Assembly: GCA_964576435.1 (NCBI GenBank)
Contig: CAZNUP010000001.1
Location: 162,345 to 226,344 of the forward strand
DNA length: 64,000 nt
From: an uncultured Gammaproteobacteria bacterium
GTDB lineage: Bacteria; Patescibacteriota; Microgenomatia; JAMCZE01
Direction: 5' to 3'
The translations under genes were made by a program, and so were the position numbers. How positions within the stretch are numbered: the stretch's first letter is position 1; every line of letters starts with the position of its first letter. This document shows positions 37,932 to 63,518 of this stretch, one piece after another. Under the pieces are notes generated by a model, which worked only from the letters and a program-made list of their open reading frames with translations, had not been told where the DNA came from and made no database searches.

Positions 37932-38014
37932 CAAAAAGAAAGCATCAACAGAAGGCTCTAACCATGAGCCTTTTGTTATGGCATAACTTGGATAAGGCGA
38001 TATAATAGGCCAAA

Positions 38015-39207: not shown

Positions 39208-39383
39208 GAAAGTTTTCAAGACGAAGCGCTTAAACGACCACTACCTATGGTTTTTGTATTGTTTTTGTGTGTTCTTTGTTTGTTCTGAAGGTGAATACTT
39301 TTATTGTCCTTACAAGACAATTCTAAATTTAGACAAAAGCATGAATCCAACCCAAAAGTGATATAATATGATCTAATTAAATT

Positions 39384-39761: not shown

Positions 39762-39774
39762 AAATTAGCTGACT

Positions 39775-40371: not shown

Positions 40372-40375
40372 AGAG
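40360..40375. repeat. perfect 16-bp palindrome CTCTCTAATTAGAGAG, copy 2 (overlaps the MOSC stop codon)
   Basis: Context GAAACTCTCTAATTAGAGAGGGAATTT. Confidence 0.8.
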
Positions 40376-40442
40376 GGAATTTAGCCCCTGTGTGCCGAAC
40401 TGTTGTGATGATTTTTGGTTTTTGTTATGATAACTATCAGAT

Positions 40443-40904: not shown

Positions 40905-41046
40905 TACTTCCTTAATTTAAGTTTCCCTTAAACAAGAGACTTTCTATGTTCCCACCCAAAGCCTCCCAACGTCGTACCAGTTGTCCCAATTTCTAGTGCC
41001 ACGGCCTTCTACAGACGACTAAGTGCGGAGTGTATAGCTAGGTTAG

Positions 41047-41075
41047 GGGGGATGGGCTTTTAAGGCCCATCCCCC
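41047..41075. other. GC-rich 11-bp perfect hairpin GGGGGATGGGC-TTTTAAG-GCCCATCCCCC in a ~420-bp non-coding gap
   Basis: A strong stem in an otherwise AT-rich intergenic region. It contains CATCCCCC, the exact complement of the ssrA 5' end GGGGATG. Confidence 0.5.
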
Positions 41076-41322
41076 ACTCATTCCTGAATAGCTACGTTTA
41101 CTATGGAAGGATGTGATAAAGAAGCGGGGGAAAGAGTTAGATTTTGGCTTGTTGTTAAGCCCTGTTTAATATCTGTTAAAATTGAGCTCCATTTCCAGAT
41201 ATAGGATTCGATCTGGTTCCAACTTTTTTCCCACGTGTCCACAGATAAAGACCAATTAATAAACGTATTCCATACAAATGCGGTTTATTGTAGGCGTAAG
41301 GGTGAGCTGATTACTTGAAAGC

Positions 41323-41676
41323 TTAGTTGTTTCTAGAGTTTTTACCAGGCGAGTTTGAAGGTGGGGTAAATTTTATTTCACGACCTGGAGGGATTTTTAC
41401 AATTCCCAATTTTAGTATTGCGCTTACAACTTCTGGATTGGGTCGAATGTCGTCTTTATTTAAGGTGACTTCTTTATCTTCTCCTGCGTCTAGTATGATA
41501 TTTCCATTAGGGCCAATAGCCTTAACTTTATAGAAGATTCCATTTCGACCCGTGACGGTATCACCAAGCTCATATCCTTCAGTGGGTTGTTCAATTTTAT
41601 CAAATTCACCAGTCCCTAAGAAACCATTCCAACGGATCTCCCAATCGTTCTGTTCCCCTTTTTTCTCTTCTGCCAT
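41323..41676 (-). CDS. hypothetical protein
   Basis: 117-aa ORF with no motif. Confidence 0.3.
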   Translation of the reverse strand: MAEEKKGEQNDWEIRWNGFLGTGEFDKIEQPTEGYELGDTVTGRNGIFYKVKAIGPNGNIILDAGEDKEVTLNKDDIRPNPEVVSAILKLGIVKIPPGREIKFTPPSNSPGKNSRNN

Positions 41677-41822
41677 GCAAAAATTATAATATAACGTAAT
41701 CTCTTTTCAACGACGAATAAATTTAAGTATATTTTCGTTTGACAGATTTATAAAAATATCAAACCATTGGAAAATATATTGTTCTAATCGGTTCCATTGA
41801 ATCTCCTGGAGGTCCACCAAGG

Positions 41823-43791: not shown

Positions 43792-46209
43792 ATGGATTCT
43801 CCACAGTCTGAGCTTACAATACAAGAACTTTTGCAAGTCACCACCAAGTTTCAAAATCTGGCAGATGATACAACCTCTTTTGAATCAGAAAACGGGCGTG
43901 GCAAGATAAGTAGACAAGAAGCTAAAAAGCAGATCATCAAAAAACTCACCCTTCTTGATAAAGAACATACATTTAATCTTCCCCATGGTGCAATCGAGTT
44001 CTTGGAAAAAAGTGACGTCAAATCAGTCGAAACTTGGAAGGTCGCTACCAGTCTCTTGCGCGGACAGCCGGCCCCACTTTTGGACAATAGTGTCCCCGGT
44101 AATCTAGGTGATCTCAAGGAACAAAGACTTAAAGTCCAACTTGGGGCGGAGGCCTCGCGAATAAACGGTCAACTACCTGACGACGTAATTAAAAGATATG
44201 TTCAGGCTCTAAAAGATAGTTACAAATTATCCGATAAACAAGTGGCTGAAGTTGAACAGGAGATAAAGAATTTACGAACCGAGCAGGCAAAAGAATCTCC
44301 ACAAGAAATAGTTGTATCTAATACCAAAGCTGGGAATCGCGATATCCCCGTTTCCGCCCCCTCCTCAAAAGTGGAAGAGATTTCTCTCCAGTCTGACCGA
44401 AAGGATGACTCGCCTTCTAAGGACGACAAGCAAACTAGTCCAAATTCCAAACTTAGTAAACAAACTAAAGAAGCAATCGAGCGAGCCGGCGAAAGAGCTG
44501 AGATGCGAGGATATAATCCAAAGACTGAAACCGGCGCCTATTTAGCTAATCAAGTCTCCTTTGGATTTAGTTATTTAAATGAAATCTGGAATACAAACCC
44601 TGAGGCCATTAGCCAAGCCATTGGAGATAGTGTTTCTTATGGTGAAACTTACGCTGAATCAAAATCTATTTCCAAAAAGATACCTTCTAAAGCAGAACAA
44701 ACTGTTAATCAAGTAGCCCAGGCAGCAGCCGCGGCTTCTGCACTTGTTCGCTCCGAACAAGTTCAAGATGTGGCAGCTCAAACTATTAGTGCTGGCCAAA
44801 TAGGGGCCCGTCGTTTGAAAGATAAAGTTGGTCCCGTAATAATTGGAACGGGAATAGGTGCAGTAGCAGGACTTTTGACTGGTAATCCATTGGCAGTAGC
44901 TGGGGGTGCAGCAGCAGGTGGTTTCATGGGCTACTCTTTAGGTGACGGCAGGACAAGAAGTGTACCACCTTCTCAGGGTGGAGGCAGTCCTTCACCTCAA
45001 TCTAGTAGAAGGCGAGGGGGGATTTTACCAGCCGCAGCCAACCTTGCTAATGCCCAAGCTCTCAAGGGGATAGTAGCATCGCTTGGGGGTGCTGGCTTAG
45101 CTTCCATCGCAGGTTGGATTTTGGTTGGAATAGGAATAGCTATTTTGATTGCTATCCTTGCGATTTTCTTCCTAAACTATTCTTTCCAACCGAGCTCCGA
45201 AGTTCTTGATCTACAAGGTGGTCCACCAATAGTTACGGTTTCCAAAACTGCGGATATTGATGAAATGGGGAATTTTGAGGAAGCTACTGTTCCTCAAAAA
45301 ATAGCCAACTATTCAATCCAAATTTCTGCTCATGAAGGGGATGTAAAAATTTCAGCTAAAGACGATGTTCGTTTTTTTGGAGAATCAGGAACCTTTGACA
45401 AAAGTCAGATGCAAGCAACTACTACCCCCATTACTTGGCCGACTTCAGTAACACCTACCGGTTCCACTGTAGCGTACGGAATTGTAATTCCAGTGAATGC
45501 AGCAAATAGACAAAACCTGAACGATGGGTATTTGGTAAATACTGTAACTATCACAGCCACAGATGAAAATGGTAAATCTGAATCTCGTTCTGCCCAAGCA
45601 ATTATTAAAGTGGGCAATCCACCAGAGGGACATCCATATGGGTTCCCCAAATCAGGAAGCATTAGTTCACTAGATAACGAGCCAATTCCTGCAATTACAG
45701 GCGAGGATGGAAAAGTTTTACCTGCACATGATCATTGTGGCGAAATCCCTTCTCTTGCGGGTTGTATTGGAGGGGGATTGGATATAACTGGTGAGGGTCA
45801 AGTAAAATCTACTGCTGAAGGTTATGTTATCTATAGTCAATTTGATTCACGTCTTGGTGGGGTTGTTTACATCTTGGCGGGAGATCACTCTGCAGCGTTC
45901 CTCCATCTTGCTGAAGAAGGTCTTGCACCTCTTGGAAAGATTAGCAGGGGAGACACTGTCGGTACTGTCTATCCAGGAAAGCTTCCTACCTCATCGGGGC
46001 CACACGTTCACTATCAAGTTTTTGACGGTGGACAAAATGTTTTCTTTAAAAATTCAGCCAGTGTAGGTGCTTGCGAAAATCCAAACGCGATCATTAGCCC
46101 AACAAACGCCCAACAACTAGCTACTAGAAGTATTCCAGCGGGTGCTGATGGCGATGGTACCGGCAATTTTTCTTGCAATATCAGCAACCCACCTGCTGTG
46201 GTAAATTAA
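43792..46209 (+). CDS. large membrane protein with C-terminal M23 (LytM-type) peptidase domain
   Basis: 805 aa: a ~330-aa cytoplasmic coiled region, two Gly-rich TM helices, then a C-terminal LPAHDHCGE...VIYSQFDSRLGGVVYILAGDHSAAFLHLAE...GDTVGTVYPGKLPTSSGPHVHYQVF matching the M23 HxxxD ... HxH architecture. Confidence 0.55.
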   Translation: MDSPQSELTIQELLQVTTKFQNLADDTTSFESENGRGKISRQEAKKQIIKKLTLLDKEHTFNLPHGAIEFLEKSDVKSVETWKVATSLLRGQPAPLLDNSVPGNLGDLKEQRLKVQLGAEASRINGQLPDDVIKRYVQALKDSYKLSDKQVAEVEQEIKNLRTEQAKESPQEIVVSNTKAGNRDIPVSAPSSKVEEISLQSDRKDDSPSKDDKQTSPNSKLSKQTKEAIERAGERAEMRGYNPKTETGAYLANQVSFGFSYLNEIWNTNPEAISQAIGDSVSYGETYAESKSISKKIPSKAEQTVNQVAQAAAAASALVRSEQVQDVAAQTISAGQIGARRLKDKVGPVIIGTGIGAVAGLLTGNPLAVAGGAAAGGFMGYSLGDGRTRSVPPSQGGGSPSPQSSRRRGGILPAAANLANAQALKGIVASLGGAGLASIAGWILVGIGIAILIAILAIFFLNYSFQPSSEVLDLQGGPPIVTVSKTADIDEMGNFEEATVPQKIANYSIQISAHEGDVKISAKDDVRFFGESGTFDKSQMQATTTPITWPTSVTPTGSTVAYGIVIPVNAANRQNLNDGYLVNTVTITATDENGKSESRSAQAIIKVGNPPEGHPYGFPKSGSISSLDNEPIPAITGEDGKVLPAHDHCGEIPSLAGCIGGGLDITGEGQVKSTAEGYVIYSQFDSRLGGVVYILAGDHSAAFLHLAEEGLAPLGKISRGDTVGTVYPGKLPTSSGPHVHYQVFDGGQNVFFKNSASVGACENPNAIISPTNAQQLATRSIPAGADGDGTGNFSCNISNPPAVVN

Positions 46210-46250: not shown

Positions 46251-47486
46251 ATGGCCGAACCACAACCTAGAACACGATCAAAAGAGTCTCTTAATGAAGA
46301 ACAAACTGTCAAGCGACTGGAGTCGATTGATTACAATCCTTGGGCTAGAATTGCCTTAGCGACGAGGTCAATTTCAGGTTACGCCCCAGATGCGAATGCG
46401 TTAAACATGGTATTGGCCGATATCAGGAATAATTCCGACCCGCTTGGGAACCGTCTTTTATTGGTTAGGGAATATCATGAACCATTTCAAAGTGTTCCCA
46501 TTGGGAAATCAGAATTTGAAAAAGTGGCAAGACAAAAAAACTCTTTAATGACATTTGAACAAGCCAGCAGTGTTCGTGATAATTTATCTTTTAATCAAGT
46601 CTGGCAGCAAGCGTGTAAGATAGCGGAAGAAGAAAGGCACACGCCACCTACAGCAGATCCGGTAGAAAATTTCGATTTAGCAGTTTACACAGTTCTTGAT
46701 TACTTTGAACAAGCTGAAAGAGTTAGAAATCTTTCAGCTACCGAAGGAGAGCAGCTTGCTGACCTCCTTCGTAATCAAGCTTACTCTCCAAATATTGTTC
46801 GGCAGAATTATAAAAGCACAATTTCTGGCGATAGTTTAGATATAGCACCTCTTTTTATTCCAAAGGGTGTCTATGCTCGTGGCACAGAGAATAGTGTTCG
46901 TGGTTTCAATGAAAGAGCTTTTATTCGGGATAGAAAAGAAGACATGGGGAAGCTTATGCAGTTAAGAAAAGATCTGGAAACAAAACTAACAACAGGCGCT
47001 GAAGCGGAGCGTGCCAACAAAATTCTTAACTACATAGATTCCCCTGGTTTCCCAGCTAGGGTGGCAGAGTCAGGAGCTCTTTTGCAACAAGGCAGAATTG
47101 AACGAGCTGCTATTTTAAACCTAATTTTAGGGGCCGTATTTGTTGGTGTTGTTTCTGCAGCAACTGAGCACAATCCTGCTGCTGAATTGGGGGCTTTGGG
47201 GTTGTGGACTATACCCGCTGTGTATCTCTTTATGTTTAAATATGAAAAAGTTGGACAAATAATTGAAAAGCTTGGAATATCTTTAAATCGTGGTCCCATA
47301 AGCGTGAGTACTCGTGGCTCTGAATCCGAAACAATATTCCAGACCTCCCCAACTCCCCCTGCCGAGGTGCAACCTAGTCCAGAAGGATCGCGTTCTCCTA
47401 CAACCCCCGACTCCTCTCAAACTCCTCCTGTGGCGGATGTGTTTTCTCAAGGCAAATGGAAGCCATCGCAACGTAGGAGAAATTAA
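46251..47486 (+). CDS. hypothetical protein with C-terminal TM helices and Pro-rich tail
   Basis: 411-aa ORF with no known domain. Confidence 0.35.
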   Translation: MAEPQPRTRSKESLNEEQTVKRLESIDYNPWARIALATRSISGYAPDANALNMVLADIRNNSDPLGNRLLLVREYHEPFQSVPIGKSEFEKVARQKNSLMTFEQASSVRDNLSFNQVWQQACKIAEEERHTPPTADPVENFDLAVYTVLDYFEQAERVRNLSATEGEQLADLLRNQAYSPNIVRQNYKSTISGDSLDIAPLFIPKGVYARGTENSVRGFNERAFIRDRKEDMGKLMQLRKDLETKLTTGAEAERANKILNYIDSPGFPARVAESGALLQQGRIERAAILNLILGAVFVGVVSAATEHNPAAELGALGLWTIPAVYLFMFKYEKVGQIIEKLGISLNRGPISVSTRGSESETIFQTSPTPPAEVQPSPEGSRSPTTPDSSQTPPVADVFSQGKWKPSQRRRN

Positions 47487-47513
47487 TTATCGATATATAA
47501 ATAATACTGCTTT

Positions 47514-47960
47514 ATGGAAAATAAAAATTTAAACCCTTCAGATATTTTACAAAAAATAGTCAATTCGCTTGGGTATGCCCAGAAAGAAAAAGAAAATATT
47601 CTTGCGGGCTTTCGGGTTTTATGTACTAATAGACTAGGAGAATCAATGTCTGACTATTTGAAGGGAATTCCCCAATCTGAAAACTTGACAAAACTGTTTA
47701 CGGGTGACTATATAGATGAGGAAATATTTGTCAAACAAGTTTCAAATCTGCTTTCTTCGGAAGAAAATTATAAAATAGATAAAGATAAAATTTTATCTTT
47801 GTATGTTAACTCTATTATGTCGTCATTTGTAGATGTACTGGGTGTTATTGAGGAAACTGCAAATTCGGAAGAGAAAATGGTTATCCGAAAAATTTTGTCC
47901 GAAAACAAGTTAACTCAAGAGTTATTCCAATTATGGCAGGAGAATCACAAATCACTTTAG
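47514..47960 (+). CDS. hypothetical protein
   Basis: 148-aa ORF. Confidence 0.3.
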   Translation: MENKNLNPSDILQKIVNSLGYAQKEKENILAGFRVLCTNRLGESMSDYLKGIPQSENLTKLFTGDYIDEEIFVKQVSNLLSSEENYKIDKDKILSLYVNSIMSSFVDVLGVIEETANSEEKMVIRKILSENKLTQELFQLWQENHKSL

Positions 47961-50038
47961 GAAACCGATGGGAGCGTGTACCTGTTCCCTCAATAAAAGA
48001 AAAAGGTCTTGAAGCATGGCCGATAAAGCCTTTGAAGGAACTTGTTGGAGAGAATCCGATCCCTCAAAACGAATCAACCTCTCCAATAGCGATTAGAAGA
48101 AGCTTAGATATTTCTGTGGGTGATGCACTATTAAATACAGGAAATAACGATGATCTATCGAAAGTAATAAGCTCCGCTATTTCAGATTTCTCAGAGCTAC
48201 CAGTTGACTGGATTCAGACAGTTCGAAAAGTATCTCAAGAAGTTGGGGAAAGTAAGGCAGATTTAATTCGGCTTTCAGCTCATAATATGGAGGAGTTGGG
48301 GAGGGTGGCTCAAAGAAAAGTAAACATGGGGGAGAACCCTGAGAAGGAGCAAATTCAAAATTTTCTCCAGAGCGAGGTCAGTACAGTCAAACGAGCAATA
48401 GAATCCGGAGAATGGTTGTTCAAACCCATTTCTGGAGGCTCGACACCATGGATTGAAGACCCTGGAGGAATGCTGGATACAATAAATGCAGACTTGGCAG
48501 CATCTGCAGGTAATCCGGATGAGGTGCGTACCTTACAGACAGTTAAGAGAATATTTAGCGATTATAATGACGACATTGATCCAACAACTGAAACAGCAAG
48601 AAGCTTAGATGTTTTAAGAGAACAATTAAGTCAGGCTAAAGTGACAAAACCCGATATTATAGAACACTATTTAGATCAGGTTTCTGCTTATCGAAGAGCC
48701 AATAGACCTGCCCTAGATGCTGTTCAAGGTGCTTTAAACGCAGAAGCTCGCAGCGCATCAGGGATTATTACTTCAGAAATGGCTGAAGATAGATTTAATA
48801 GGTCTCCAGATAAAGTGGGGTACGTGCGAGCTAGGATAGACTGGATTAGAGGGATTTATAAAAGTCCGGATGAATTTCGAGGTACACACTTTGTCCCATA
48901 CGAAGAACTTGTGAACGCCGAAGCAGCAATTCAGGCCTATTCCCCTCGTCTTTGGTTGGAAGAGCAATACACTTTCCCCATGATTTCGGTTGGTATGGTG
49001 GCTCGCGGTGCAAACGAAATGACTGATATACTGCAGCAGGCCGGTAAGTGGACAGCTGAATTTTTCCAAACAATGACCAGACTTCCTTTGACTCAGGCAG
49101 CGACTGGTAGCAATGTTGAGGCAGTAGCCAAGGGTTTTTCTCTTTTGGAGCGGTACAAGGTGGAGTATATGCGTCTCCCTAGAGAAAACAAAAGTGAACT
49201 TATAAATGTTGTTTCTTGGATGATCCACGGCTATTCTGAAGCTGACTCTCGAGCGCGAGCTGCAGCCAACATGAAAGCGCCCTATTTTTCAGCAGCTATG
49301 GATGCAGAAGATCTTTGGCTAGGGACTTTAAGAGGCATAGTTCCTGCCAAATCTGGGACCGATGTATTAAGAGAAAGTATTGTCTACCCTGCATACAGGC
49401 TTGCTAATATTCAATCATCAGTCAAAGCAAATCCAGAAGTTTTAAGATTTTTTAAAGAAGAAGGCAATAAATATGTTGATCCTTTTTTTGTTGACTTTTG
49501 GACCTATTTAGCTTTCTCTAAGCCTGAGAGAATAGGTTTGCCAACAGGGATGCTTCAAAGAACCCCAAGTGGGGGGTATAGGATGGAGAATAATTTACAG
49601 AATGTTAATATCGCCTCAATAAATTTCCAAGCAGACATGAAGCCAAACCAATTTTTTAGTAAGTACCTTGCTTACGCGACCAATGCAGATAAATTCAGAG
49701 CCTTAGCAGAAAAGGGCGGTGTTTTTACAAATCCGAGAGACATGGAAGTCCTATCTAAACACATTGCTGATGGGCTATGGAATAAACAGGATTATGGTGA
49801 AGAAGGGGAGATTGGCGAGCTAAGGGCAGCGGCTATTTGCAATGTGGCCGAAGGGATAGTTGAGTTTAATAAAAGAAGTTTTAATAGTCCTGCAAAAAGA
49901 GATATAAAGGGAAGTTGGCCTGATCAATGGGATCATAAAACTATCAAAAATCAATTAAACAAGTTAACGGCGCCACCATTTAATATAAGTCCCAATAGTA
50001 GGGTATTTAACCGCCTCAAGAAAAAGTACGCTGTTTGA
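47933..50038 (+). CDS. hypothetical large protein
   Basis: 701-aa ORF with no Walker motifs or other recognised signature. Confidence 0.35.
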   Translation: MAGESQITLGNRWERVPVPSIKEKGLEAWPIKPLKELVGENPIPQNESTSPIAIRRSLDISVGDALLNTGNNDDLSKVISSAISDFSELPVDWIQTVRKVSQEVGESKADLIRLSAHNMEELGRVAQRKVNMGENPEKEQIQNFLQSEVSTVKRAIESGEWLFKPISGGSTPWIEDPGGMLDTINADLAASAGNPDEVRTLQTVKRIFSDYNDDIDPTTETARSLDVLREQLSQAKVTKPDIIEHYLDQVSAYRRANRPALDAVQGALNAEARSASGIITSEMAEDRFNRSPDKVGYVRARIDWIRGIYKSPDEFRGTHFVPYEELVNAEAAIQAYSPRLWLEEQYTFPMISVGMVARGANEMTDILQQAGKWTAEFFQTMTRLPLTQAATGSNVEAVAKGFSLLERYKVEYMRLPRENKSELINVVSWMIHGYSEADSRARAAANMKAPYFSAAMDAEDLWLGTLRGIVPAKSGTDVLRESIVYPAYRLANIQSSVKANPEVLRFFKEEGNKYVDPFFVDFWTYLAFSKPERIGLPTGMLQRTPSGGYRMENNLQNVNIASINFQADMKPNQFFSKYLAYATNADKFRALAEKGGVFTNPRDMEVLSKHIADGLWNKQDYGEEGEIGELRAAAICNVAEGIVEFNKRSFNSPAKRDIKGSWPDQWDHKTIKNQLNKLTAPPFNISPNSRVFNRLKKKYAV

Positions 50039-50049: not shown

Positions 50050-51612
50050 TTATTTAATTTGCCCTTTTGAAGGTAGGTTTCTCAAGAGAATATTAGGTTT
50101 ATTGGATGTGGGTTTATTGGGAAGTGGAGTACCTCTTAAATCGGCCTTTATTTTCTCTTGACTGTAGGTCTCCCATTCTTTGGCAGATTTACCTACCAAT
50201 TCTCCGTAGCCATAAGAATATGCCCTTCCCCCAGTATTATTCCATCCGAACTTAACCGCTTCAGTCCAAGCACCTGCCCACTTAAATGCTGGAGCCTTGA
50301 ATGTTTGCTGTAGAATCTCTAAAGCCTTTGGAATTGTAAGTAAAATGCCAATTCCAATTAAAGCTTGAATAGCTTGTTGATTGTTTCCACCAATTAAGGG
50401 TGGAACAAATCCTTGCCCTTCTGGCCCAATCCATTGAGGTCCATTAGGACCAGCTAAGGCTAGAGCAACGAACATCATGCCGATAACAAGAGGGAAAGTC
50501 ATAAGGTTTGCGAGAAGTGTCCTGACCCATGCCTGAAATTGATTTTGTCCAGGAACAGCGTCAAGCATAAGCTGTAGAGGAGCAAAAATGATCGCTAAAA
50601 TAATATTCACATATGCTCCCAAAAGAACAAGCCATGTTTTGAAAAGTGCCCAAAGTATGGCAATTGCTACAATCAAAAATCCAAGGCTTCCGCCAACTGC
50701 TCCAAGAATTACGCCAGTCCCCCCACTAACACCCACGTTTCCAAGGAATTGGATAATAATTGCGTTAATAGCATAAAACGCACTCAAGCTCACTCCAACT
50801 CCGCCATTAATTCCACCTCCTAAGAAAAATGAAAAAATTGTCTGTCCACTAAGTAGATTTTGTTTAATACTATCTACCTGGCTAGACATGCCACCTATTG
50901 ATGACAGAACTGCCAAAAATAGATTGATCATTACGTACATTATGTCGATTAAAAATCCAGCAATGGCATAAGAAAAAGTCACCAATATTAATGCCATAAC
51001 AATTTTAGGTAAAGCCGTCTGAACTGTCGCAACAGTTTTTGGATCTATTTTAAATCGAAGCATAATCATAATACCGACTGCCACAAAAATAACGGCAAAT
51101 ATTACATATGCGACATTTCTAAATGCAGTCCAAATTTGAAGTACTGGTTGTAAACTAGTAAATCCCACACCGCCCACAGTTGCTGCGTAAGCTGGTTCTG
51201 TTCCAGGGACCTGAATCCGTGATGCGATATAGTTTGTAAAATCAGCTCCTGACGCGGGTTTTGTCGAAGCCATATAAACAATGCCGTTTCCAAACATACT
51301 AATTGCTCCAGGAACAAATCCGGTAGTTTTTTGCCCTGTTGCAGTCGTGACTGTCTTGGGATACCCACTGATTGCAAGTCCAGCTCCTCCCATGACGGGT
51401 CCGGTTAGCCATCCCATTGCCCAGCATTGTTGATTGGTGGGAAAGCAATTCTCAAATGCCTGAATCATGGTTTCAGGTGTTTGTATTTCTGGATTTTGTG
51501 AGAGAGTGCCCGTCACACTACCCGGTGCAATAGGCGCAGCAAACACTGGCTGTAGAACTCCACAAAAGACAAAAACACCAAAAAGAAGCACACTAAAAAA
51601 CGCCCTTTTCAT
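50050..51612 (-). CDS. polytopic membrane protein, VirB6/TrbL-like topology (tentative)
   Basis: I trimmed the start to MKRAFFSVLLFGVFVFCGVLQPVFAAP (signal peptide). It has an extracytoplasmic N-domain, at least 6 TM helices with Gly-rich segments, and a C-terminal tail. It is co-oriented with three VirB2-like genes. Confidence 0.35.
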   Translation of the reverse strand: MKRAFFSVLLFGVFVFCGVLQPVFAAPIAPGSVTGTLSQNPEIQTPETMIQAFENCFPTNQQCWAMGWLTGPVMGGAGLAISGYPKTVTTATGQKTTGFVPGAISMFGNGIVYMASTKPASGADFTNYIASRIQVPGTEPAYAATVGGVGFTSLQPVLQIWTAFRNVAYVIFAVIFVAVGIMIMLRFKIDPKTVATVQTALPKIVMALILVTFSYAIAGFLIDIMYVMINLFLAVLSSIGGMSSQVDSIKQNLLSGQTIFSFFLGGGINGGVGVSLSAFYAINAIIIQFLGNVGVSGGTGVILGAVGGSLGFLIVAIAILWALFKTWLVLLGAYVNIILAIIFAPLQLMLDAVPGQNQFQAWVRTLLANLMTFPLVIGMMFVALALAGPNGPQWIGPEGQGFVPPLIGGNNQQAIQALIGIGILLTIPKALEILQQTFKAPAFKWAGAWTEAVKFGWNNTGGRAYSYGYGELVGKSAKEWETYSQEKIKADLRGTPLPNKPTSNKPNILLRNLPSKGQIK

Positions 51613-51658
51613 CACATTTAGAATGTCAAATTTTTGTCCCTTTGTCAACGTTAAAAGG

Positions 51659-51994
51659 TTACTGAGAAACGTAGACACTGAAGTTTTGAAGAGGATTTGG
51701 AATTCCAAGAAAACTAGCTACTATATTTGAAGCAATAAAGATAAAAAGTGCTGCTACAACCCCAATAATTGCATAGGTAAATGTTTTTTTGCCTTTTTCT
51801 AAAGCTTTAGCGTCACCTCGGGAAATAATAATTTGTAAAATCCCCCACAACATAACAATAAGTGCCACTGCCCCAAGGAACATTATTAGAATTCCAATGA
51901 TGTTGGCAACAACAATTGTTAAACATCCTAGAGAGGGTACTGTGCCATTTGCTAGTTCACAACCAATACTTGGGTCATTTGTAATGCTTGCCAT
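51659..51994 (-). CDS. VirB2/TrbC-like small pilin paralog 1 (two TM helices with charged loop)
   Basis: 111 aa. ...IVMLWGILQIIISRGDAKALEKGKKTFTYAIIGVVAALFIFIA shares the hairpin-helix layout of the next two genes. Confidence 0.4.
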   Translation of the reverse strand: MASITNDPSIGCELANGTVPSLGCLTIVVANIIGILIMFLGAVALIVMLWGILQIIISRGDAKALEKGKKTFTYAIIGVVAALFIFIASNIVASFLGIPNPLQNFSVYVSQ

Positions 51995-52066
51995 GCCCTA
52001 TCAGAATACCAAAAACCCGCTCGTTTTAAAAGCGGGTTTAGGATTTTTCTTCTAAAAAATCAAAAA

Positions 52067-52480
52067 TTACAATTGTGGAACAGTCAAACCTGTTAAGCCA
52101 TTTGATAGTCCAAAGAATGTAAAGATGATGTTGATAAGGACCCAAGAAGCAAGAACAATTGCAAGTCCTACAAGGGCTGCAGTAACTGATGCTTTTGCTT
52201 TCCCAGTTGCTTCTTTGTCACCACCACTAAGTACCCACTTAATACCACCATAAATTAAGTACAAAAGTGCTGCCACAAAGGCCACGAAAAGTCCTACGTT
52301 AACAGCTGTAGTTACAACTACATCTAGTGTTACATTGCAAAGATTAGACGGATCAATTCCCTGTTCTGTTTGGCCGCACAAATCCAATGCATAGGCGGGA
52401 TTGCTGTAGGCTAAAAATGCTGCTGCGGAGCTAAGTCCGATGATTACCTTTTTCATACACCTCCTTACAAGTTTATTCAA
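52067..52480 (-). CDS. VirB2/TrbC-like small pilin paralog 2
   Basis: 137 aa with a signal peptide ending AYA|LD. The mature part is LLYLIYGGIKWVLSGGDKEATGKAKASVTAALVGLAIVLASWVL: two hydrophobic helices joined by a Lys/Gly loop. Confidence 0.45.
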   Translation of the reverse strand: MNKLVRRCMKKVIIGLSSAAAFLAYSNPAYALDLCGQTEQGIDPSNLCNVTLDVVVTTAVNVGLFVAFVAALLYLIYGGIKWVLSGGDKEATGKAKASVTAALVGLAIVLASWVLINIIFTFFGLSNGLTGLTVPQL

Positions 52481-52538
52481 TTACTAACTATTACATTAAG
52501 ATTGAATCAGTTGACTTAAAATGTCAAGAACTAAATGG

Positions 52539-52910
52539 TTATATTATCAGTAATTTTACGCCAAAGAAGTTTCCAATTATTGTTAAAATAACAAAAGACG
52601 CAAGAGCTAGTGCAACCCCTAAAAGAGCATAAGTGACTGTGTTTTTTGCTTTTGCAGTTCCTTCTTTGTTTCCGCCACTTGTCATTATCATAATCCCTCC
52701 AATAATTGTAAAAAGTAAACCTGCTGAGAATATTAAAAATAAAAGCAATGAAATAACAGAAGGAACAGCACTATTCACAATGAAATCCAAACCTCCCCCA
52801 GGCGGCAGAATTCCAGGAGGTGCAATTGAATTGATCCATGTGCTTGGTGGTGCGACTGAATCACCAACAGCATAAACAGGTCTTGGTATAAAAATATTTA
52901 ATATGTTCAT
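52539..52910 (-). CDS. VirB2/TrbC-like small pilin paralog 3
   Basis: 123 aa. TIIGGIMIMTSGGNKEGTAKAKNTVTYALLGVALALASFVIL is clearly homologous to paralog 2. Confidence 0.45.
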   Translation of the reverse strand: MNILNIFIPRPVYAVGDSVAPPSTWINSIAPPGILPPGGGLDFIVNSAVPSVISLLLFLIFSAGLLFTIIGGIMIMTSGGNKEGTAKAKNTVTYALLGVALALASFVILTIIGNFFGVKLLII

Positions 52911-52912
52911 AT

Positions 52913-53797
52913 TTAAAAAAGCCCTGGAATACTAATTATATTTGCTCCAACAACTTGTAGTAGTACCAATGAAAACACTATCAATATTAATCCAGTTAAG
53001 ATCGAAGTAATATTTTCTCGAACTGCCTGCAATTTCTGAGGATCACCAGATGATACCATTAGTGTATAAGCAGTAATTAATGACATTAATAGAATTACAC
53101 CTCCAGCAATACCTAACGCCCATTTCATTAAAAATCCGCCTGCATCTTCAATTGTTCCAGTAGGAATACACCCGATAGCCGTTTGAACCCCCTCCTCTGT
53201 GCCACTAATGCACCCAGTCATAAGGTCCCATCCAGAATTGGCAGCCTGTACACAAGTTTGCGTTTTTTGGTCATAAACCTTACCAGCATTAAAATCGCAT
53301 GCAGTTGTTGGGCTGGTTGCAGTAGAGTTTTTGACTTCCTCAACAATTACCGCACATGACCGTAGATCGTTTCTCTCTAGTGCTGCCGAGGCTCCTCTGC
53401 ACAAGCCATCTTCACAACAATATTTTTCAAGTTCCGAAACTTCCGCCTTTGTGCAGTTAACTCTTAGCAAAGGATTAAAAAAAAGTATATTTGTTTGTCC
53501 TAGGGGGCAGGCGGGGACAGAGCCAGGAACAACACATTTATAGCCATCACATGTCTCTCCGGGACTGCATTGTAGGTTAATGGCTTTGTCCCATCCGGAA
53601 AGTGGTCGGCAGGCTGCCACATTGATTCCTCCAGCTTGAGCTAAAATAGGATAACATTTTGGCTGACTATCACCGCTGCATGCGTTTGCTACCATGCCAG
53701 TTGGACAACACAACTTGTCAGCAGCCTCTACATAGGATGGCGTGGCTGTTACTTTAAAAATTAAAATGAAAAGTAATAGGACTAAAACCTTTTTCAT
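52913..53797 (-). CDS. secreted Cys-rich protein with C-terminal VirB2-like pilin module
   Basis: 294 aa: a signal peptide, a ~200-aa domain with about 20 Cys, then a C-terminal GIAGGVILLMSLITAYTLMVSSGDPQKLQAVRENITSILTGLILIVFSLVLL repeating the two-helix pilin-like module. Confidence 0.4.
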   Translation of the reverse strand: MKKVLVLLLFILIFKVTATPSYVEAADKLCCPTGMVANACSGDSQPKCYPILAQAGGINVAACRPLSGWDKAINLQCSPGETCDGYKCVVPGSVPACPLGQTNILFFNPLLRVNCTKAEVSELEKYCCEDGLCRGASAALERNDLRSCAVIVEEVKNSTATSPTTACDFNAGKVYDQKTQTCVQAANSGWDLMTGCISGTEEGVQTAIGCIPTGTIEDAGGFLMKWALGIAGGVILLMSLITAYTLMVSSGDPQKLQAVRENITSILTGLILIVFSLVLLQVVGANIISIPGLF

Positions 53798-53815
53798 GAA
53801 TTCAGAATATCATAC

Positions 53816-56800
53816 CTAATGTGGTGTTTGTTCACTTGTTGAACCAGTTCCCGCCGGTTGTCCCTCAAATCTAAGAACTTGCTTAACAAAATTTGTTGCA
53901 TTCCAAAAACCTCCCAGTTTATAGAAAAAAAGTTTCCACCCTGTTTCTTTGTGTCCCGTGTCGTCAATTGAAAGACCACTTGAATTAGCTACCTGATAAT
54001 AAACATTATCGGTGCTTGCTGGAATTGGGTCAAAAGCTTTGTCAGCTTCTTCTTTGGACCTCAATACTTCAGTTTGTTCTTTAAATACTCGCAAGAATCC
54101 AACTGCTCCAATGGTGTTCTCTGCAATATCAAATAAATGGGGGAACACTGTCCTAACTTGAACAGTCTCATCAAAATTTTGTACACCAGGTTTTAGTGAC
54201 CCACCCGCTTTGTCTTGTTGGGCACATCGAATTTCACCGGCCGGTCCAACTGTGCAAATTTCTGAATCTGATGTTTCACTGATAGAGTCAACTTTGCATT
54301 CAACCGCCCGCTCATATTCGGACAACCCTGCTACAGGATTACCAAGTTTTGGATCGAGTTGGTAATTGGTTCCATCAATTCGTAAAGTTTTAGTTTCGTC
54401 ATACATTACGTTAGGTGACTTGCTATAAAAGTCTTCCCAATCCCTTGGTCCACAAGCATTTGGGCTAATATATTTCTTTGGATCTAACTCCTTTCCATAA
54501 GTTGGAAGGTTTTTTTGTAAAACCGCCGGATCAGCGCTTGTTATCAAACTCTCTCGAAGTTCCATGTCCTGCCTTGGCATAAGAGCGTTTTGGATTGCAT
54601 CAGTTACTAAAGCTAACCTTTGGACTTCTGGGACAGATACGTAAACTGGTCCATATTTTGCACTTTTTCCGTCATTCGTTTTAAATTTCTCTTGTCCAGT
54701 AATACTGTTATCTGCCATAACGCCAAAAACACTTGGTGCTATAAACTGGATTTCTCCTTGAGAAGCATCATTGGGAAATAATGGTACAGCATACCAATAG
54801 TTGCCAAATTCTTTTTCCCATGCGGTGTATAAGTCTCCATTACTTTTTTCGGGCGGGCAAGAGATTTGAGTTATATTCTTCCCAAATACCTGAAACTCCT
54901 TCCCTGTATAACTATATGATCCATCTGCGCCCTTTATTCTTTCAAGGTATTTTGTATTTTGCTCATTAATTTTGCGGTCTTTAACATACTGTATAAATTC
55001 ACACTTGAGTCTGTCCTGAGTGTCATTATCTAGAATTTTTCGAGCTACCCCAGATTGGTCCCATACTTTTTGCATTGTCTGTTGTGCTTTTTGGGGATCT
55101 CTTAAGTCTTGTTGCAACTTATCTAAATCCTCCTCACTTTGATGTTCGGCATCAAAGACTCCCGCAAAGTAGTCACCAAGCTTGGCTGCAAATGGTAAAA
55201 AGAATGAATTACTTCCATCTTTACCTTTAACTTCAATTTTGGCTCTGCAATTAGCATCTGTTAAACAGGCTCCAACAGTGGTTGTAATTTGTCCAATCTG
55301 TAAGTGCTCTCCCATTTGAATAGGTTGCCCACATTCTGAAACACACCTTGCCTTCTCGTTATAGGTTGGTACACAAGCTGGTAGTCCTTGAATATTTTCT
55401 TGAACAGTTTGGTTCTTATTGGGAGATTTTCCAATATGCTCATAATATTTCAGGCAGTACCCAAAAGTTACTTGGTCTTTTGGTGGTATTTCATTGAGTG
55501 GCACACAGGCATTACTTTGCATTCCCTTATAAACTTTCTGCCACAATTGGTAAATTGGATTATTGGTGCCATCATCAGCTTGTCCCATGCAAAATCCTAT
55601 GATGCTTCTTCCGTAATTTCCCGTCTTATCAGCCCCTCCTCCGCAATCATATCCTCCTTTAGAAACAAAGTCGGGTAGGGAGTCTGGATAACAAAGCCTA
55701 TGGAGTTCTTCACCCGTACACCAATCTCCCCTCATATTATCTTTGTCAATCAGTGATGGGTCGTGACAATATTTGGGTTCCTCGTGTGGGATAATTCCAC
55801 AGGAGTTTGAAACTGGTCCCAAATTTGTCCCATCACCAAACTTAGAATCCACAGCAATTTCTGGAGGACAAACTTGAATTGATCCAAGTGGTGGGTAAGA
55901 TGGGATATCTGAATTAGCCCCCAAGGTAGTGCCAGATTTATGGCTTGTTGATCCTCCGAGGTTAACTGATGCCTGATTATATTCACCTGATGCAACAAGT
56001 TGTCCATTTGCATTAGTTACGTAGTAGTAAGCGTGTATTTTTCCATCAGCATCTCTTACATAAGTCGTTACAACATCAAGCTGATTTCCATGGGGAGTCG
56101 ATAGTAGGGCTTCATAGAACTCCCACAATTTTTTGTCTATTCCTGGCTCAAATACCCCTCCAGGAATACCAAGTTCAGAAATGAGCAAAGGTTTACTGCT
56201 AACATCTTTGAAACCAGATCTACTTAACGTCAAAATTTCGTTTTCAAAATCAGTTTTGATAGTGTCAGCACTTGGTCCAATTACTATAAAAGTGTATGCT
56301 CCAATATTTTCTTTTATCCAGGTATCTACTCTATTTGCTTTTGTTCCAGGAACTAAAGTTTTTAAAGTTTGATAAACACTTGTCATAAAGGCGTCAGGAT
56401 TAAGTCCCGCCCCAGATGAAGAACATCCATTTGCTCCCGGTGTAGTATTTCCACAATAAGAAAGTGGTGACATTGATGGTTCAAAATTTTTCGCAGCTGT
56501 TGCAAATTCATAAAAAGCCTTGGCATAAGTTACTGGGTTTGCAGTACCACCCCATTCATTGTTTAAATTAGCTTCATTTCCAAAGTAAGCAAAGGGTGTG
56601 TGATTTTTGGGGAATGGTTTTTCAAGGGCTCCAATTGCATTATTTAATGCGATAGCATTTGCTTTTGCTGTCTCAGTGTCTATTGAGTCCCATTCGTCTC
56701 CCGCGTTGTCAGACGCCACGCGGATTACGACCTGGATCTTCTGTTCCTGTGCTGTTTTGAAAAACAAATCTAATTGTTCTTGATTAGCTAAATCAGGTCC

Positions 56801-57031
56801 TCTGAATAGAAACGATCCCGAAATCCAGCACTCAGCGGATCCTCCCGCATTTTTATAACCATTCCTAAGATTTACCAGTACATTGGGATCTATATTAGTA
56901 ATCAAGTGATTACCAAGAACTGGGCATTTATCATTTGGTGAAGCAGCCTGAGCATCGATTATTGATTTACCAATTCCTCCAATAATAAGGACAACCAAAA
57001 CAATTGCCAGGATTTTCGCCAGCCTTTTCAT
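53816..57031 (-). CDS. giant secreted protein with N-terminal clan GH-A (GH5-like) glycoside hydrolase domain and Cys-rich C-terminal extension
   Basis: 1071 aa with a signal anchor. FAYFGNEANLNNEW (an NEP-like acid/base) is followed ~130 aa later by PLLISELGIPGG (a TExG-like nucleophile), which is the TIM-barrel GH-A spacing. The C-terminal 700 aa is Cys-rich. Confidence 0.45.
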   Translation of the reverse strand: MKRLAKILAIVLVVLIIGGIGKSIIDAQAASPNDKCPVLGNHLITNIDPNVLVNLRNGYKNAGGSAECWISGSFLFRGPDLANQEQLDLFFKTAQEQKIQVVIRVASDNAGDEWDSIDTETAKANAIALNNAIGALEKPFPKNHTPFAYFGNEANLNNEWGGTANPVTYAKAFYEFATAAKNFEPSMSPLSYCGNTTPGANGCSSSGAGLNPDAFMTSVYQTLKTLVPGTKANRVDTWIKENIGAYTFIVIGPSADTIKTDFENEILTLSRSGFKDVSSKPLLISELGIPGGVFEPGIDKKLWEFYEALLSTPHGNQLDVVTTYVRDADGKIHAYYYVTNANGQLVASGEYNQASVNLGGSTSHKSGTTLGANSDIPSYPPLGSIQVCPPEIAVDSKFGDGTNLGPVSNSCGIIPHEEPKYCHDPSLIDKDNMRGDWCTGEELHRLCYPDSLPDFVSKGGYDCGGGADKTGNYGRSIIGFCMGQADDGTNNPIYQLWQKVYKGMQSNACVPLNEIPPKDQVTFGYCLKYYEHIGKSPNKNQTVQENIQGLPACVPTYNEKARCVSECGQPIQMGEHLQIGQITTTVGACLTDANCRAKIEVKGKDGSNSFFLPFAAKLGDYFAGVFDAEHQSEEDLDKLQQDLRDPQKAQQTMQKVWDQSGVARKILDNDTQDRLKCEFIQYVKDRKINEQNTKYLERIKGADGSYSYTGKEFQVFGKNITQISCPPEKSNGDLYTAWEKEFGNYWYAVPLFPNDASQGEIQFIAPSVFGVMADNSITGQEKFKTNDGKSAKYGPVYVSVPEVQRLALVTDAIQNALMPRQDMELRESLITSADPAVLQKNLPTYGKELDPKKYISPNACGPRDWEDFYSKSPNVMYDETKTLRIDGTNYQLDPKLGNPVAGLSEYERAVECKVDSISETSDSEICTVGPAGEIRCAQQDKAGGSLKPGVQNFDETVQVRTVFPHLFDIAENTIGAVGFLRVFKEQTEVLRSKEEADKAFDPIPASTDNVYYQVANSSGLSIDDTGHKETGWKLFFYKLGGFWNATNFVKQVLRFEGQPAGTGSTSEQTPH

Positions 57032-60780: not shown

Positions 60781-61326
60781 ATGAAACAGGAAAAATTTGT
60801 GACCCCGGAAGTCAACCTTCTGCCCCAGGATGACATGGAACAACATCCCGGTGGCAAATTTTTAAAGTGGGCTTTGTCGTGGGGAAAAAAGATCATTGTT
60901 CTTATTGAGTTGATTGTAGTTATTGCCTTTCTCTCAAGGTTTAAACTAGATTCAGATGTTGCTAACAATTCAGAAGAAATTGCAAGGAGAAAGACAATTA
61001 TCTTAGCTTCCAAAGATTTTGAGAAAGAATTTCGCCAGGTTCAGACAAAAGTAAATAAAGTCAAGTCGATAACTTCTTTGCCAAACTCAGTAACTATTTA
61101 CGATGTTGTTCAAACATTAATTCCAAGTAGTGTAAATGTTGGATCTATTTCAATTACAGGTACGAAGGTAAACCTTGAAGGTGAAGGTGAAGATAGTGCT
61201 CTTTCAAAAATGGTTGCTGATTTCAAAAGTTCCCCAGATTTTTCCGATGTAGTTCTGGAAAAAGTAACTAAACAAGGAGATAGTACTCAAATTAGTTTCT
61301 CTTTATCGGCCGAATATACAAAGTAA
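60781..61326 (+). CDS. pilN: PilN-like type IV pilus assembly protein
   Basis: An N-terminal VNLLPQD motif (the PilN INLLP hallmark), a single TM helix and a periplasmic domain. Confidence 0.55.
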   Translation: MKQEKFVTPEVNLLPQDDMEQHPGGKFLKWALSWGKKIIVLIELIVVIAFLSRFKLDSDVANNSEEIARRKTIILASKDFEKEFRQVQTKVNKVKSITSLPNSVTIYDVVQTLIPSSVNVGSISITGTKVNLEGEGEDSALSKMVADFKSSPDFSDVVLEKVTKQGDSTQISFSLSAEYTK

Positions 61327-61333
61327 TTAAATT

Positions 61334-62014
61334 ATGTCAAACAAGACTGATCAAGCAGATTTAAGGCGATTTGGAAAATATAAAACTCAAATCGAGCCAG
61401 TTATGTCGGATCCAATTATTAGGGGTTACTTCACCCTCGTTGCCTCATTCCTATTAATTGCTTTCTTTATTTTCTTTGCACTCTCTCCAACCTTTTCAAC
61501 TGTTGTTGGATTAGTAAGAAAAATTGATGACCAGAAAAAGACCCTACAAACCTTAGATTCCAAAATTACCAATCTAATTACTGCACAGGAAAACTATAGC
61601 CAAATTGAGTCAAAGCTTCCTCTCTTAGATAGTGCTATGCCTCAAACACCAATGCCCCAAGCTGTTCTTCAAGAAATATTAGCAACCTCTACTTTCTCAG
61701 GAGTCACAATAACTACGCTACAAATTGGTGATGTTTACCTAAGTGGTATTAATCCAAAGCGCCAACCATCGGATTCAACAGCTCCAGTTCAAACTGTTGG
61801 TGTGGCATCAAATATAGGTATTCCAAACGTGCCATTTTCTGTATCATTTACTGGTGATAAAGCTCAAATTAGAAACTTTATTGGCACATTAATGAATCTT
61901 CCGCGCATTATGACAATTTCAACTATAACTGTTGGAGAAAATGTTGAGGAACAAACAAAAGGAGAGTTAAACGCTGACATGACAGGTAATGCGTACTATT
62001 ATCCAAACCCATGA
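61334..62014 (+). CDS. PilO-like type IV pilus assembly protein (tentative)
   Basis: 226 aa: cytoplasmic N-terminus, a TM helix, a coiled-coil (KIDDQKKTLQTLDSKITNLITAQENYSQIESKL) and a C-terminal domain. Its position directly after pilN supports the call. Confidence 0.4.
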   Translation: MSNKTDQADLRRFGKYKTQIEPVMSDPIIRGYFTLVASFLLIAFFIFFALSPTFSTVVGLVRKIDDQKKTLQTLDSKITNLITAQENYSQIESKLPLLDSAMPQTPMPQAVLQEILATSTFSGVTITTLQIGDVYLSGINPKRQPSDSTAPVQTVGVASNIGIPNVPFSVSFTGDKAQIRNFIGTLMNLPRIMTISTITVGENVEEQTKGELNADMTGNAYYYPNP

Positions 62015-62208
62015 AATTTAAAGATAAAACTTGGATTTTAATATCTTTTCTCACTTTAACAATCGCTGTAATATGGCTAGGTATTGTTGTTAAAAATACT
62101 TTGACAAAACCAACATTACCAGAGGATTTAGAACAAATCTCTAAACCTCTTAATCCAACAATAAATCAGTCGGTTTTTGAAAGTCTAAGTAATAGGAAGT
62201 CGCCATAG
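62011..62208 (+). CDS. small single-TM protein (PilP position, tentative)
   Basis: 65 aa with a TM helix, overlapping the previous stop. Confidence 0.25.
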   Translation: MKFKDKTWILISFLTLTIAVIWLGIVVKNTLTKPTLPEDLEQISKPLNPTINQSVFESLSNRKSP

Positions 62209-62216
62209 GGTAGTTC

Positions 62217-63518
62217 ATGGGAAACAAAAAAATACCATCAGTCTTAGGTGTTTTCATAGTTATTTTAATGGTGGCTGCTTTATTTGTGACAACAAATGGT
62301 GTCGATAAAGTTAGAGACATATTTACAAATGCTAGTGGTCAACCAGAACCCAAGAACGTAACAATTGCAAACATCAGTAATAATTCCTTTACTGTCTTTT
62401 GGACGACTGATACGCCGTCTGGTGGCGCCGTCTTTTATGGTACGTCAGAAAATCTTGGTGACGGAATAGCTGTTGATCAAAGGGATCTTGGTGGCGCTGG
62501 AGAAAAGTACCAAACACACTTTGTGATAGTAAATGGCTTATCAGAATCTACAAAGTACTATTTTAAGATAGGTGAATCAGACCCCGCCTTTGGTCCCTAT
62601 GATGCGACCACTGGTCCAAAGTTAGATGATGCTACTGAAGCTGTTCAATTATCTGGAAAGGTTACATCAAGTAGTGGCTTTCCAGTTTCCGGATCGGTTG
62701 CTTCTTGGCAAGCTCCAGGTGCCTCTAAAATTGCATCCTTGGTTAAAAGCGATGGTACTTATGTCCTCCCCATTTCGAATGCCAGAGTTACTAACTTGTC
62801 CAGTGCTTTTGCTCCAGAATCTGGATCACCAGAGAAAATCATTATAACTGGAAGCGAAAGTGAAGCAACAATAAATTGTACCTATGGGGAGGCCACAAAT
62901 TTACCAACTGTCCAAATGGGAAAAACCATTTCCTGTTCTGATACTGCCAGTTCGACGCAAGCCACCTCACAGGAGACCTCTACAGAGACACAAGAAACTA
63001 AAACCACCACGTCAACTGGCTTTAAAAATCTCGTTAAATCCAACACCCAGGCAACTAGTTCAGGATCCACTGAAACCGTTGATGTAAACATTGAATCAGG
63101 GGAATCAGTTTCAACAAGTCTACCAACCTTTTCAGGAAAAGCTGGCCCAAAGCAGAAAGTCAAAATTGTCGTTCATTCAGAAGATGTCTATTCAGGAACT
63201 GTTATTGCAAAACCCGATGGTAGTTGGTCTTGGACTCCTCCAGCAAATCTAACTCCTGGTGAGCATACAGTTACTATAACTGTAGTTAATGCTGATGGTA
63301 CTACTCAAACAGTGAATAGAACATTTACAGTAAATTCAGGAGAATCCATTTTGCCGATCACAGCAGGTACTCCGTCAGCAACAATTACATCAGCTCCATT
63401 ACCTGACGACGAACTCATTGCAACTGGTGTCGAGGCTCCTACAATTTTGGCTTTGACATTGAGTGTTTTATTTATTACTCTAAGTATTGGAACTATTTTT
63501 ATCTATGGATCCAATTAA
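62217..63518 (+). CDS. cell-surface protein with fibronectin type III-like domain and C-terminal TM anchor
   Basis: N-terminal TM helix, NVTIANISNNSFTVFWTTDTPSGGAVFYGTSENL (an FN3/purple-acid-phosphatase N-domain-like start), a Thr/Ser-rich linker, and a C-terminal hydrophobic anchor. Confidence 0.4.
   Translation: MGNKKIPSVLGVFIVILMVAALFVTTNGVDKVRDIFTNASGQPEPKNVTIANISNNSFTVFWTTDTPSGGAVFYGTSENLGDGIAVDQRDLGGAGEKYQTHFVIVNGLSESTKYYFKIGESDPAFGPYDATTGPKLDDATEAVQLSGKVTSSSGFPVSGSVASWQAPGASKIASLVKSDGTYVLPISNARVTNLSSAFAPESGSPEKIIITGSESEATINCTYGEATNLPTVQMGKTISCSDTASSTQATSQETSTETQETKTTTSTGFKNLVKSNTQATSSGSTETVDVNIESGESVSTSLPTFSGKAGPKQKVKIVVHSEDVYSGTVIAKPDGSWSWTPPANLTPGEHTVTITVVNADGTTQTVNRTFTVNSGESILPITAGTPSATITSAPLPDDELIATGVEAPTILALTLSVLFITLSIGTIFIYGSN

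Follow-up and report, generated by a model that had tools for sequence, protein, structure and literature searches.

The VirB4 ATPase of type IV secretion systems (T4SS) is encoded in 2,417 of 3,035 Patescibacteria assemblies (~80%), according to the text of the survey by Quinonero-Coronel et al., published in 2025 (PMC12102498). The same survey text reports that pilin genes lie near virB4 in 1,135 of the 1,948 assemblies having both and apart from it in about 40%, that 441 arrays of VirB2 pilins occur in 383 assemblies, mainly of Microgenomatia and Saccharimonadia, and that VirB6 is scarce in Microgenomatia when searched with hidden Markov models (HMM). In Southlakia epibionticum, where the system spans SEML1_0006-0019, the T4SS and its pilins are described in the text of the original paper as essential, and no recognizable coupling or relaxase proteins are reported there (PMC10633639; reviewed in PMC12857230). 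The T4SS is essential in the one patescibacterium that is genetically tractable, and its function has been described as completely unknown (PMC11665869). In this work we analyzed a stretch of 64,000 nucleotides (the window), which belongs to a contig of 709,729 bp and has a G+C content of ~39%, and in particular a cluster of six genes located at 50050-57031 that encodes four proteins with VirB2-like pilin modules, a VirB6-like membrane protein and a large secreted protein. We consider it likely that this cluster is the pilin/VirB6 module of a Patescibacteria-type T4SS, related to the mating-pair formation type MPF-FATA of monoderms and carried in the core chromosome of a Microgenomatia-like bacterium.

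The locus shares with the T4SS described for Patescibacteria the tandem and divergent VirB2-like pilins of family PF18895, the VirB6-like protein, a chromosomal location, the absence of a relaxase, the proximity of cell-wall hydrolases, and the frequent placement of the pilins away from virB4. It departs from them in four features: its module has a fixed place between lepA and smpB, entirely apart from virB4; the TrbL/VirB6 profiles do not detect the VirB6-like protein; the pilins fall in fixed positional classes with a fusion protein in the first place; and the operon is headed by a clan GH-A protein that carries an uncharacterized conserved domain. The texts of the Southlakia paper and of the Quinonero-Coronel et al. 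survey contain no description of these four features. As to the Gram-negative MPF-T systems (Agrobacterium tumefaciens VirB, R388 Trw), the pilins have in common two hydrophobic helices with a short basic loop, and the predicted fold of the polytopic partner has TrwI/VirB6 among its top matches. In contrast, the organism is monoderm, neither the window nor the related loci have a recognizable gene for VirB5, VirB7, VirB9 or VirB10, no similarity to VirB2 or VirB6 of A. tumefaciens is seen in profile comparisons, and the best structural counterpart is DotA, of the type IVB systems. The VirB4 lineage is related to that of the Gram-positive conjugation systems (pCF10 Prg, pIP501 Tra, ICEBs1 Con), as stated in the survey text (PMC12102498), and relatives of the window carry PrgI/VirB3 and TrsD-like genes; these Gram-positive systems, unlike the locus studied here, lack VirB2-like pilins, include a relaxase and a coupling protein, and reside on mobile elements.

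The six genes of the cluster are encoded on the minus strand, co-directional and tightly spaced, downstream of lepA. Their open reading frames (ORFs), together with the peptides and the GNEAN and SELG motifs quoted in an initial annotation of this DNA, were all found in place. In the order of transcription they encode a secreted multidomain protein of 1071 amino acids (53816-57031), a pilin fusion of 294 residues (class 1; 52913-53797), three small VirB2-like pilins of 123 (class 2; 52539-52910), 137 (class 3; 52067-52480) and 111 residues (class 4; 51659-51994), and a polytopic membrane protein whose ORF has 552 codons (50050-51708). In public gene calls the 137-residue pilin begins at Met9, which gives 129 residues, and the polytopic protein begins at Met33 (50050-51612, 520 residues); for the latter, the start at 51612 is probably the right one. 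The nearest homologues are found in metagenome-assembled genomes of Gottesmanbacteria, Microgenomates and unclassified Patescibacteria.

The Pfam family T4SS_pilin (PF18895), whose curated cut-off is 26.6 bits, matches all four pilin modules with E values from 5e-7 to 7.5e-4. The module at the end of the 294-residue protein (residues 223-283) is the only one above the cut-off (30.0 bits, E 5.4e-7); the 111- and 137-residue pilins score slightly below it (25.3 bits, E 1.7e-5, and 25.1 bits, E 1.9e-5), and the 123-residue pilin falls under it with 20.0 bits (E 7.5e-4). By hydropathy and alignment, each module consists of two hydrophobic helices joined by a loop of the form S-G-G-D/N...K. All four also give weak matches to the NCBIfam family Mbov_0395, a pilin-like conjugal transfer protein of Mycoplasma integrated conjugative elements (ICEs); the orthologues in the related loci L003 to L008 carry precomputed PF18895 matches, and one pilin orthologue of L007 matches TrbC/VirB2 as well. 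A Sec signal peptide is clear in the 137-residue protein, where it ends in AYA, and in the 294-residue protein; it is unclear in the 123-residue pilin and absent from the 111-residue pilin, which has two Cys ahead of its first helix. In the fusion, the signal peptide is followed by a variable ectodomain of ~190 residues, and the protein is indeed rich in Cys, with 18 of these residues and not the approximately 20 initially counted. A comparison of the pilin alignment with A. tumefaciens VirB2 using hhalign gave no signal, in a test that is weak given that the template is a single sequence. From their sequences, then, the small proteins are predicted to be paralogous VirB2-type pilins and the 294-residue protein a pilin fusion, as had been proposed.

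A different origin could be considered for these proteins, namely that they are unrelated small membrane proteins, such as holins or bacteriocin immunity proteins, lying beside an ordinary permease, since short proteins with two helices easily produce weak profile matches and three of the four are under the Pfam cut-off. The pilins, however, had no PHROG match of any kind at E <= 0.01, holins included, and their Pfam matches include no holin or immunity family, whereas the T4SS_pilin matches recur in every orthologue and the proteins are strictly co-conserved with the DotA/VirB6-like protein and, in relatives, with VirB4. The lack of a holin signal, the strong co-conservation of the set and a polytopic partner that does not resolve as an ordinary permease all favor a T4SS, and we give the holin or immunity explanation practically no credit.

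The pilins were compared in ten genomes, i.e. the window and nine related arrays. In the window and in all nine arrays the first pilin gene encodes a fusion of at least 247 residues with a variable N-terminal ectodomain; three small pilins come after it in seven of the nine, and in L004 and L090 extra genes lie in between. The modules form at least three classes (the fusion, the second and third positions, and the fourth position): those of the fusion pilins make up one clean cluster, the fourth-position pilins of eight genomes cluster separately, and the 123-residue pilin finds its best matches elsewhere among second-position pilins. In 31 of 37 cases the best cross-genome match shares the positional class of the query, and for most modules it outscores every paralogue of the same genome; for instance, the 137-residue pilin is 60% identical to its positional orthologue of L003 and 50% identical to its nearest paralogue in the window. 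Because the best cross-genome matches keep the positional class, the paralogues appear to be old and ordered, and this arrangement would be more in keeping with a division of labor, as between major and minor pilins, than with an array that is purely variable.

An additional observation concerns the intergenic region at 52013-52039, where a perfect stem of 10 bp followed by a run of T is found on the minus strand, after the gene of the 137-residue pilin and before that of the 111-residue pilin. Sites of this terminator-like class are not enriched with respect to shuffled sequences; this hairpin might raise the upstream pilin transcripts relative to those of the downstream genes.

The polytopic protein consists of a signal or anchor segment, an extracytoplasmic domain of ~90 residues and a helical membrane bundle. 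An AlphaFold2 (AF2) model built on 62 homologues reached a predicted local distance difference test score (pLDDT) of 80; in this model the protein is polytopic, with at least five helices, and its fold resembles that of the solved VirB6-type subunits, the best structural match being DotA, ahead of TrwI. Only two of the 62 family members match the Pfam TrbL profile (best E 7.9e-5), none of ten candidate members scanned for TrbL did so, and a profile of the family did not retrieve any VirB6 from the PDB. The family has more than 363 homologues, none of which is annotated. Given that the E value of TrwI is not significant, that TrbL is matched by 2 of 62 members and that there is no profile signal with A. 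tumefaciens VirB6, the protein is best described as VirB6-like by its predicted fold and gene context and not as a sequence member of TrbL; the initial call of a VirB6-like protein holds.

The first membrane hairpin of this family (residues ~150-215 of the 520-residue form, ~50970-51160) weakly resembles the pilin module: 8 of the 62 members match PF18895 there, and a purpose-built pilin HMM gives domain E values down to 6e-5. This resemblance could be a mere similarity between hydrophobic helices.

In agreement with the initial annotation, no ATPase, relaxase or coupling protein of a T4SS was detected in the window by a survey of ORFs with P-loops, Pfam scans and tblastn. The only ORFs with P-loops are LepA, a PilB-type ATPase of a type IV pilus and a STAND NTPase; none is of the coupling-protein kind, no relaxase or type IV coupling protein (T4CP) family of Pfam was matched by the ORFs scanned, and the VirB4, PrgI and TraC-like queries from relatives found nothing by tblastn. 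The cluster could thus be viewed as an autonomous surface filament or contact system, ATPase-less or non-canonical and distinct from a T4SS, and it had in fact been proposed as a stripped-down system not described before; four to five related genomes likewise have virB4 apart from the module. In other Microgenomatia, however, the same gene families are contiguous with the genes of VirB3, TrsD and VirB4. In L005, L007 and L008 the fusion pilin, the three pilins and the VirB6-like protein are encoded within 10 kb of PrgI/VirB3, a TraC-like (TrsD-like) protein and VirB4. A scan of the GTDB species genomes with the VirB4 of L005 found 375 relatives, and of the 44 best VirB4 loci whose upstream sequence extends for 9 kb or more, 20 have the VirB6-like family within 10 kb of VirB4: all 15 of the loci with the closest VirB4s and 5 of the 29 with more distant VirB4s. 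Since the linkage was observed in just 20 of the 44 loci, linked and unlinked layouts both exist. The module encodes no alternative source of energy, and both the presence of VirB4 in four fifths of the assemblies and the frequent separation of the pilins from it, as given in the survey text (PMC12102498), argue against a self-sufficient system. An autonomous ATPase-less system is for these reasons very improbable. As homologous modules adjoin the genes of PrgI/VirB3, TrsD-like protein and VirB4, and systems of this type have been published (PMC10633639, PMC12102498, PMC12857230), the proposal of an undescribed system is abandoned: the locus is a typical example of a described T4SS, and its arrays of VirB2-like pilins, their frequent separation from virB4 and the poor detection of VirB6 by HMM in Microgenomatia were all reported between 2023 and 2025. 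The motor ATPase is probably encoded elsewhere in the genome, because related genomes have it.

The position of the module also bears on whether it could be a decayed or cargo fragment of an integrated conjugative element, either an ICE or a plasmid. Both the pilin and the VirB6 family have their origin in conjugation machinery, and there are two serine recombinase genes in the window. Nevertheless, the window, L003 and L004 all have the module between lepA and smpB, L006 and L089 have it immediately behind lepA, and pilN-rpsT-murJ-lepA is found on its far side in the window, L003 and L006; the order of the surrounding housekeeping genes (lepA, murJ, rpsT and smpB) is kept in several genomes that share just 40-50% protein identity. 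In addition, all the genes are intact, neither a relaxase nor a coupling protein is present, and the recombinase gene closest to the module is part of another island, located at the tmRNA gene and absent from the relatives. We regard a mobile-element fragment as hardly credible.

In the conjugation systems of wall-less and Gram-positive bacteria, the small pilin-like proteins are assumed to stay in the membrane. Hence, accepting that the genes encode a T4SS set, the two-helix proteins might remain as membrane subunits of a channel or mating junction, and the ectodomain of the fusion would be that of a membrane-anchored adhesin. The weak matches to the Mycoplasma ICE family Mbov_0395, the class-4 pilin without a cleavable signal peptide and the pilin-like first hairpin of the VirB6-like protein are in line with such an arrangement, and T4SSs of monoderms are generally devoid of pili (PMC12857230, PMC12102498). 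On the other side, T4SS_pilin is the best profile, TrbC/VirB2 is matched by one orthologue, the presence of several conserved pilin classes, including one that has a display domain, recalls a division into major and minor pilins, and a pilus is considered likely in reviews (PMC12857230). We judge it unlikely that the pilins remain as membrane subunits.

Several results weigh against a pilin/VirB6 module of a T4SS, the explanation that we hold as likely. VirB4, VirB3 and TrsD are all missing from the 64-kb window, and the 80 best GTDB VirB4 loci include none from the contig of the window or from the genomes of L003, L004 and L006. Three of the four pilins score below the Pfam cut-off, those of 111 and 137 residues by ~1.4 bits, and to date no patescibacterium has been seen to form a pilus from these pilins. 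The VirB6-like protein has no sequence match to Pfam TrbL (PF04610), NCBIfam or the VirB6 sequences of the PDB; Foldseek does list TrwI/VirB6 at the top for its model, with an E value of 0.06 that is not significant, and hhalign gave a probability of 0.1% against A. tumefaciens VirB6, in a weak test with a single-sequence template. Finally, the roles that we assign to the fusion pilin and to the GH-A and M23 proteins are derived from their domain content and position.

The protein of 1071 residues that heads the operon has an N-terminal signal or anchor helix, a barrel domain, a Cys-rich linker and, after the latter, a conserved C-terminal module (residues ~552-1053). No match in Pfam, NCBIfam or sequence searches of the PDB was obtained; its N-terminal domain matches no Pfam glycoside hydrolase (GH) family even at E <= 1, including GH5 (PF00150, Cellulase), and the isolated GH domain retrieved no homologue in a word-index search. 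An exhaustive search among 1.84 billion representatives yielded just 68 relatives. In the AF2 model, built with 38 relatives (pLDDT 79, above 90 in the barrel), residues ~35-355 form a (beta/alpha)8 barrel of eight alternating strand-helix units, in which Asn152-Glu153 follow strand 4 (147-150) and Glu286 is located on strand 7 (282-288). Across 22 relatives N152, E153, E159 and W160 do not vary, and the conservation of E286 is 90% or more. The top Foldseek matches in the PDB are the GH26 enzyme AlXyn26A (1.6e-5) and PslG (2e-5), followed by members of GH5, GH51, GH53, GH113 and GH128 with E values up to ~1.5e-2, all of clan GH-A. PslG and other endoglycosidases of this clan share the (beta/alpha)8 fold, the Asn-Glu pair after strand 4 and the Glu on strand 7; they differ from the domain described here in that the latter has no sequence-family membership, continues into a Cys-rich linker and a module of ~500 residues of unknown fold, and is encoded within a T4SS pilin operon. 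The model and its putative catalytic residues place the N-terminal domain in clan GH-A without assigning it to a known GH family, so that the initial reading as a GH5-like enzyme was right about the clan and too specific about the family.

Orthologues of the 1071-residue protein occupy the same position in L003, L004, L089 and L090. The gene is missing from the modules of L006, L007 and L008, which points to the GH head being accessory. Many relatives share solely the C-terminal part and have other heads, i.e. Glyco_hydro_cc, GH5, GH39, GH42, SLT_3 or PKD, and one distant relative of the C-terminal module matches PF00150 at 3.5e-4. Within this part, residues ~590-775 (54707-55264) form an uncharacterized domain with the motifs IPFAxxLADHWAG ... 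GVLKKLLP ... LFPNE, for which profile searches of Pfam and the PDB revealed no relative, and which is present in many large proteins of Patescibacteria. An HMM of this domain identified 16 ORFs in the compared loci; each of the 16 is found in a locus that has the VirB6-like gene too, and the ORFs are on the same strand as that gene, often directly upstream of it.

On the opposite side of the module, a block of plus-strand genes is convergent with the VirB6-like gene. It includes the gene of a membrane protein of 805 residues (43792-46209), which has hydrophobic segments at residues 346-468 and a C-terminal Peptidase_M23 domain at residues 662-750 (E 3.9e-9, above the cut-off) and whose gene ends this block. 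It has an M23 orthologue of 859 residues in L004, and in L003 the counterpart shows the same architecture with a lysozyme-like SLT_3 domain in the place of M23. This swap at one position points to selection for a cell-wall hydrolase with a VirB1/PrgK-type role. From its sequence, the 805-residue protein would be anchored in the membrane and bear a peptidoglycan hydrolase domain, and its gene accompanies those of the T4SS; it is thus a candidate for the VirB1/PrgK-like cell-wall hydrolase of the apparatus; we take such a membrane-anchored multidomain hydrolase to be comparable to PrgK or CwlT. The remaining genes of the block (46251-50038) encode proteins of 411, 148 and 701 residues without any match in Pfam, NCBIfam or PHROG. 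A large gene of opposite strand follows the VirB6-like gene in every relative, its position being kept and its sequence not; a single family of large convergent genes was rejected, given that just those of L007 and L008 are alike. In the 701-residue protein (47933-50038), which looks cytoplasmic, residues ~255-321 resemble T4 lysozyme below the threshold (E 0.04-0.9), and these matches are copies of one protein and not independent. Beyond the block, on the minus strand, a membrane protein of 637 residues (41823-43736) is a conserved neighbor of the module, with orthologues 34-36% identical at the same position in L003 and L004, the former with a faint NHL-repeat match; whether it is part of the system is uncertain.

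The region between smpB and the 637-residue protein gene (33926-41700) contains, after smpB, the tmRNA gene at 34369-34792 (Rfam, 73.5 bits), which overlaps by its 3' end with the end of the serine recombinase gene at 34728-36305, as well as the Shedu defense gene sduA (38015-39094), a MOSC-domain gene and small ORFs. Since in L003 and L004 smpB is within ~1 kb of the 637-residue orthologue, this region looks like a defense island of ~7 kb inserted at ssrA; long repeats were not found at its flanks, and no attachment repeats were convincing. The start of the window, with a STAND/NACHT-type NTPase gene that runs off the window there (2-1092) and a second large serine recombinase gene (2964-4664), may be another mobile or defense region. 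Type IV pilus genes are present at 23463-26230 and 60781-63518 (PilC-like T2SSF, PilB-like T2SSE ATPase, PilN and PilO), accompanied by the gene of a 433-residue protein with an immunoglobulin (Ig) domain. Five of the seven tRNA genes of the window are tRNA-Ser (32251-32439, and at 11244, 27112 and 31633), one of which was called with the unusual anticodon ACT at 32251-32337, 15 bp from a tRNA-Ser GCT.

By analogy with the biology of VirB2 and VirB6, we can outline how the module may operate. The four proteins with pilin modules would be inserted into the membrane, two of them by means of Sec-type signal peptides, and the VirB6-like protein would be the membrane platform for pilin assembly; a VirB3/TrsD/VirB4 ATPase unit, adjacent in relatives and here supplied from elsewhere in the genome, would power the system. 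The 805-residue M23 protein could open the producer's own cell wall, the class-1 pilin could act as an adhesin by exposing its variable, Cys-rich ectodomain at the filament or channel, and the 1071-residue protein would carry the GH-A glycosidase to the contact site and cut the surface polysaccharide of the host. Whether the apparatus acts as a pilus or a channel, and in export or in uptake, we infer only by this analogy; host interaction, by delivery or uptake, appears most likely over conjugation because the module is chromosomal and no relaxase or coupling protein is nearby.

The locus offers a candidate VirB6 subunit for the Microgenomatia, which has been largely missed by the published HMM surveys. 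What is new here is that the pilin paralogues constitute conserved and ordered classes, one of them a display fusion, and not just a variable array, and that an uncharacterized domain and its glycan-hydrolase partners travel with the module, which hints at a role on the host surface. As a tentative idea, to which we would give only a small chance, the T4SS of Microgenomatia might be a display scaffold, in which one pilin class bears interchangeable Cys-rich ectodomains and the uncharacterized domain (residues ~597-775), in all cases encoded together with the VirB6-like gene, docks to the apparatus large secreted proteins that bear swappable glycan-hydrolase heads; if so, this machine would cut through the surface polysaccharide or the wall of the host at the contact site.

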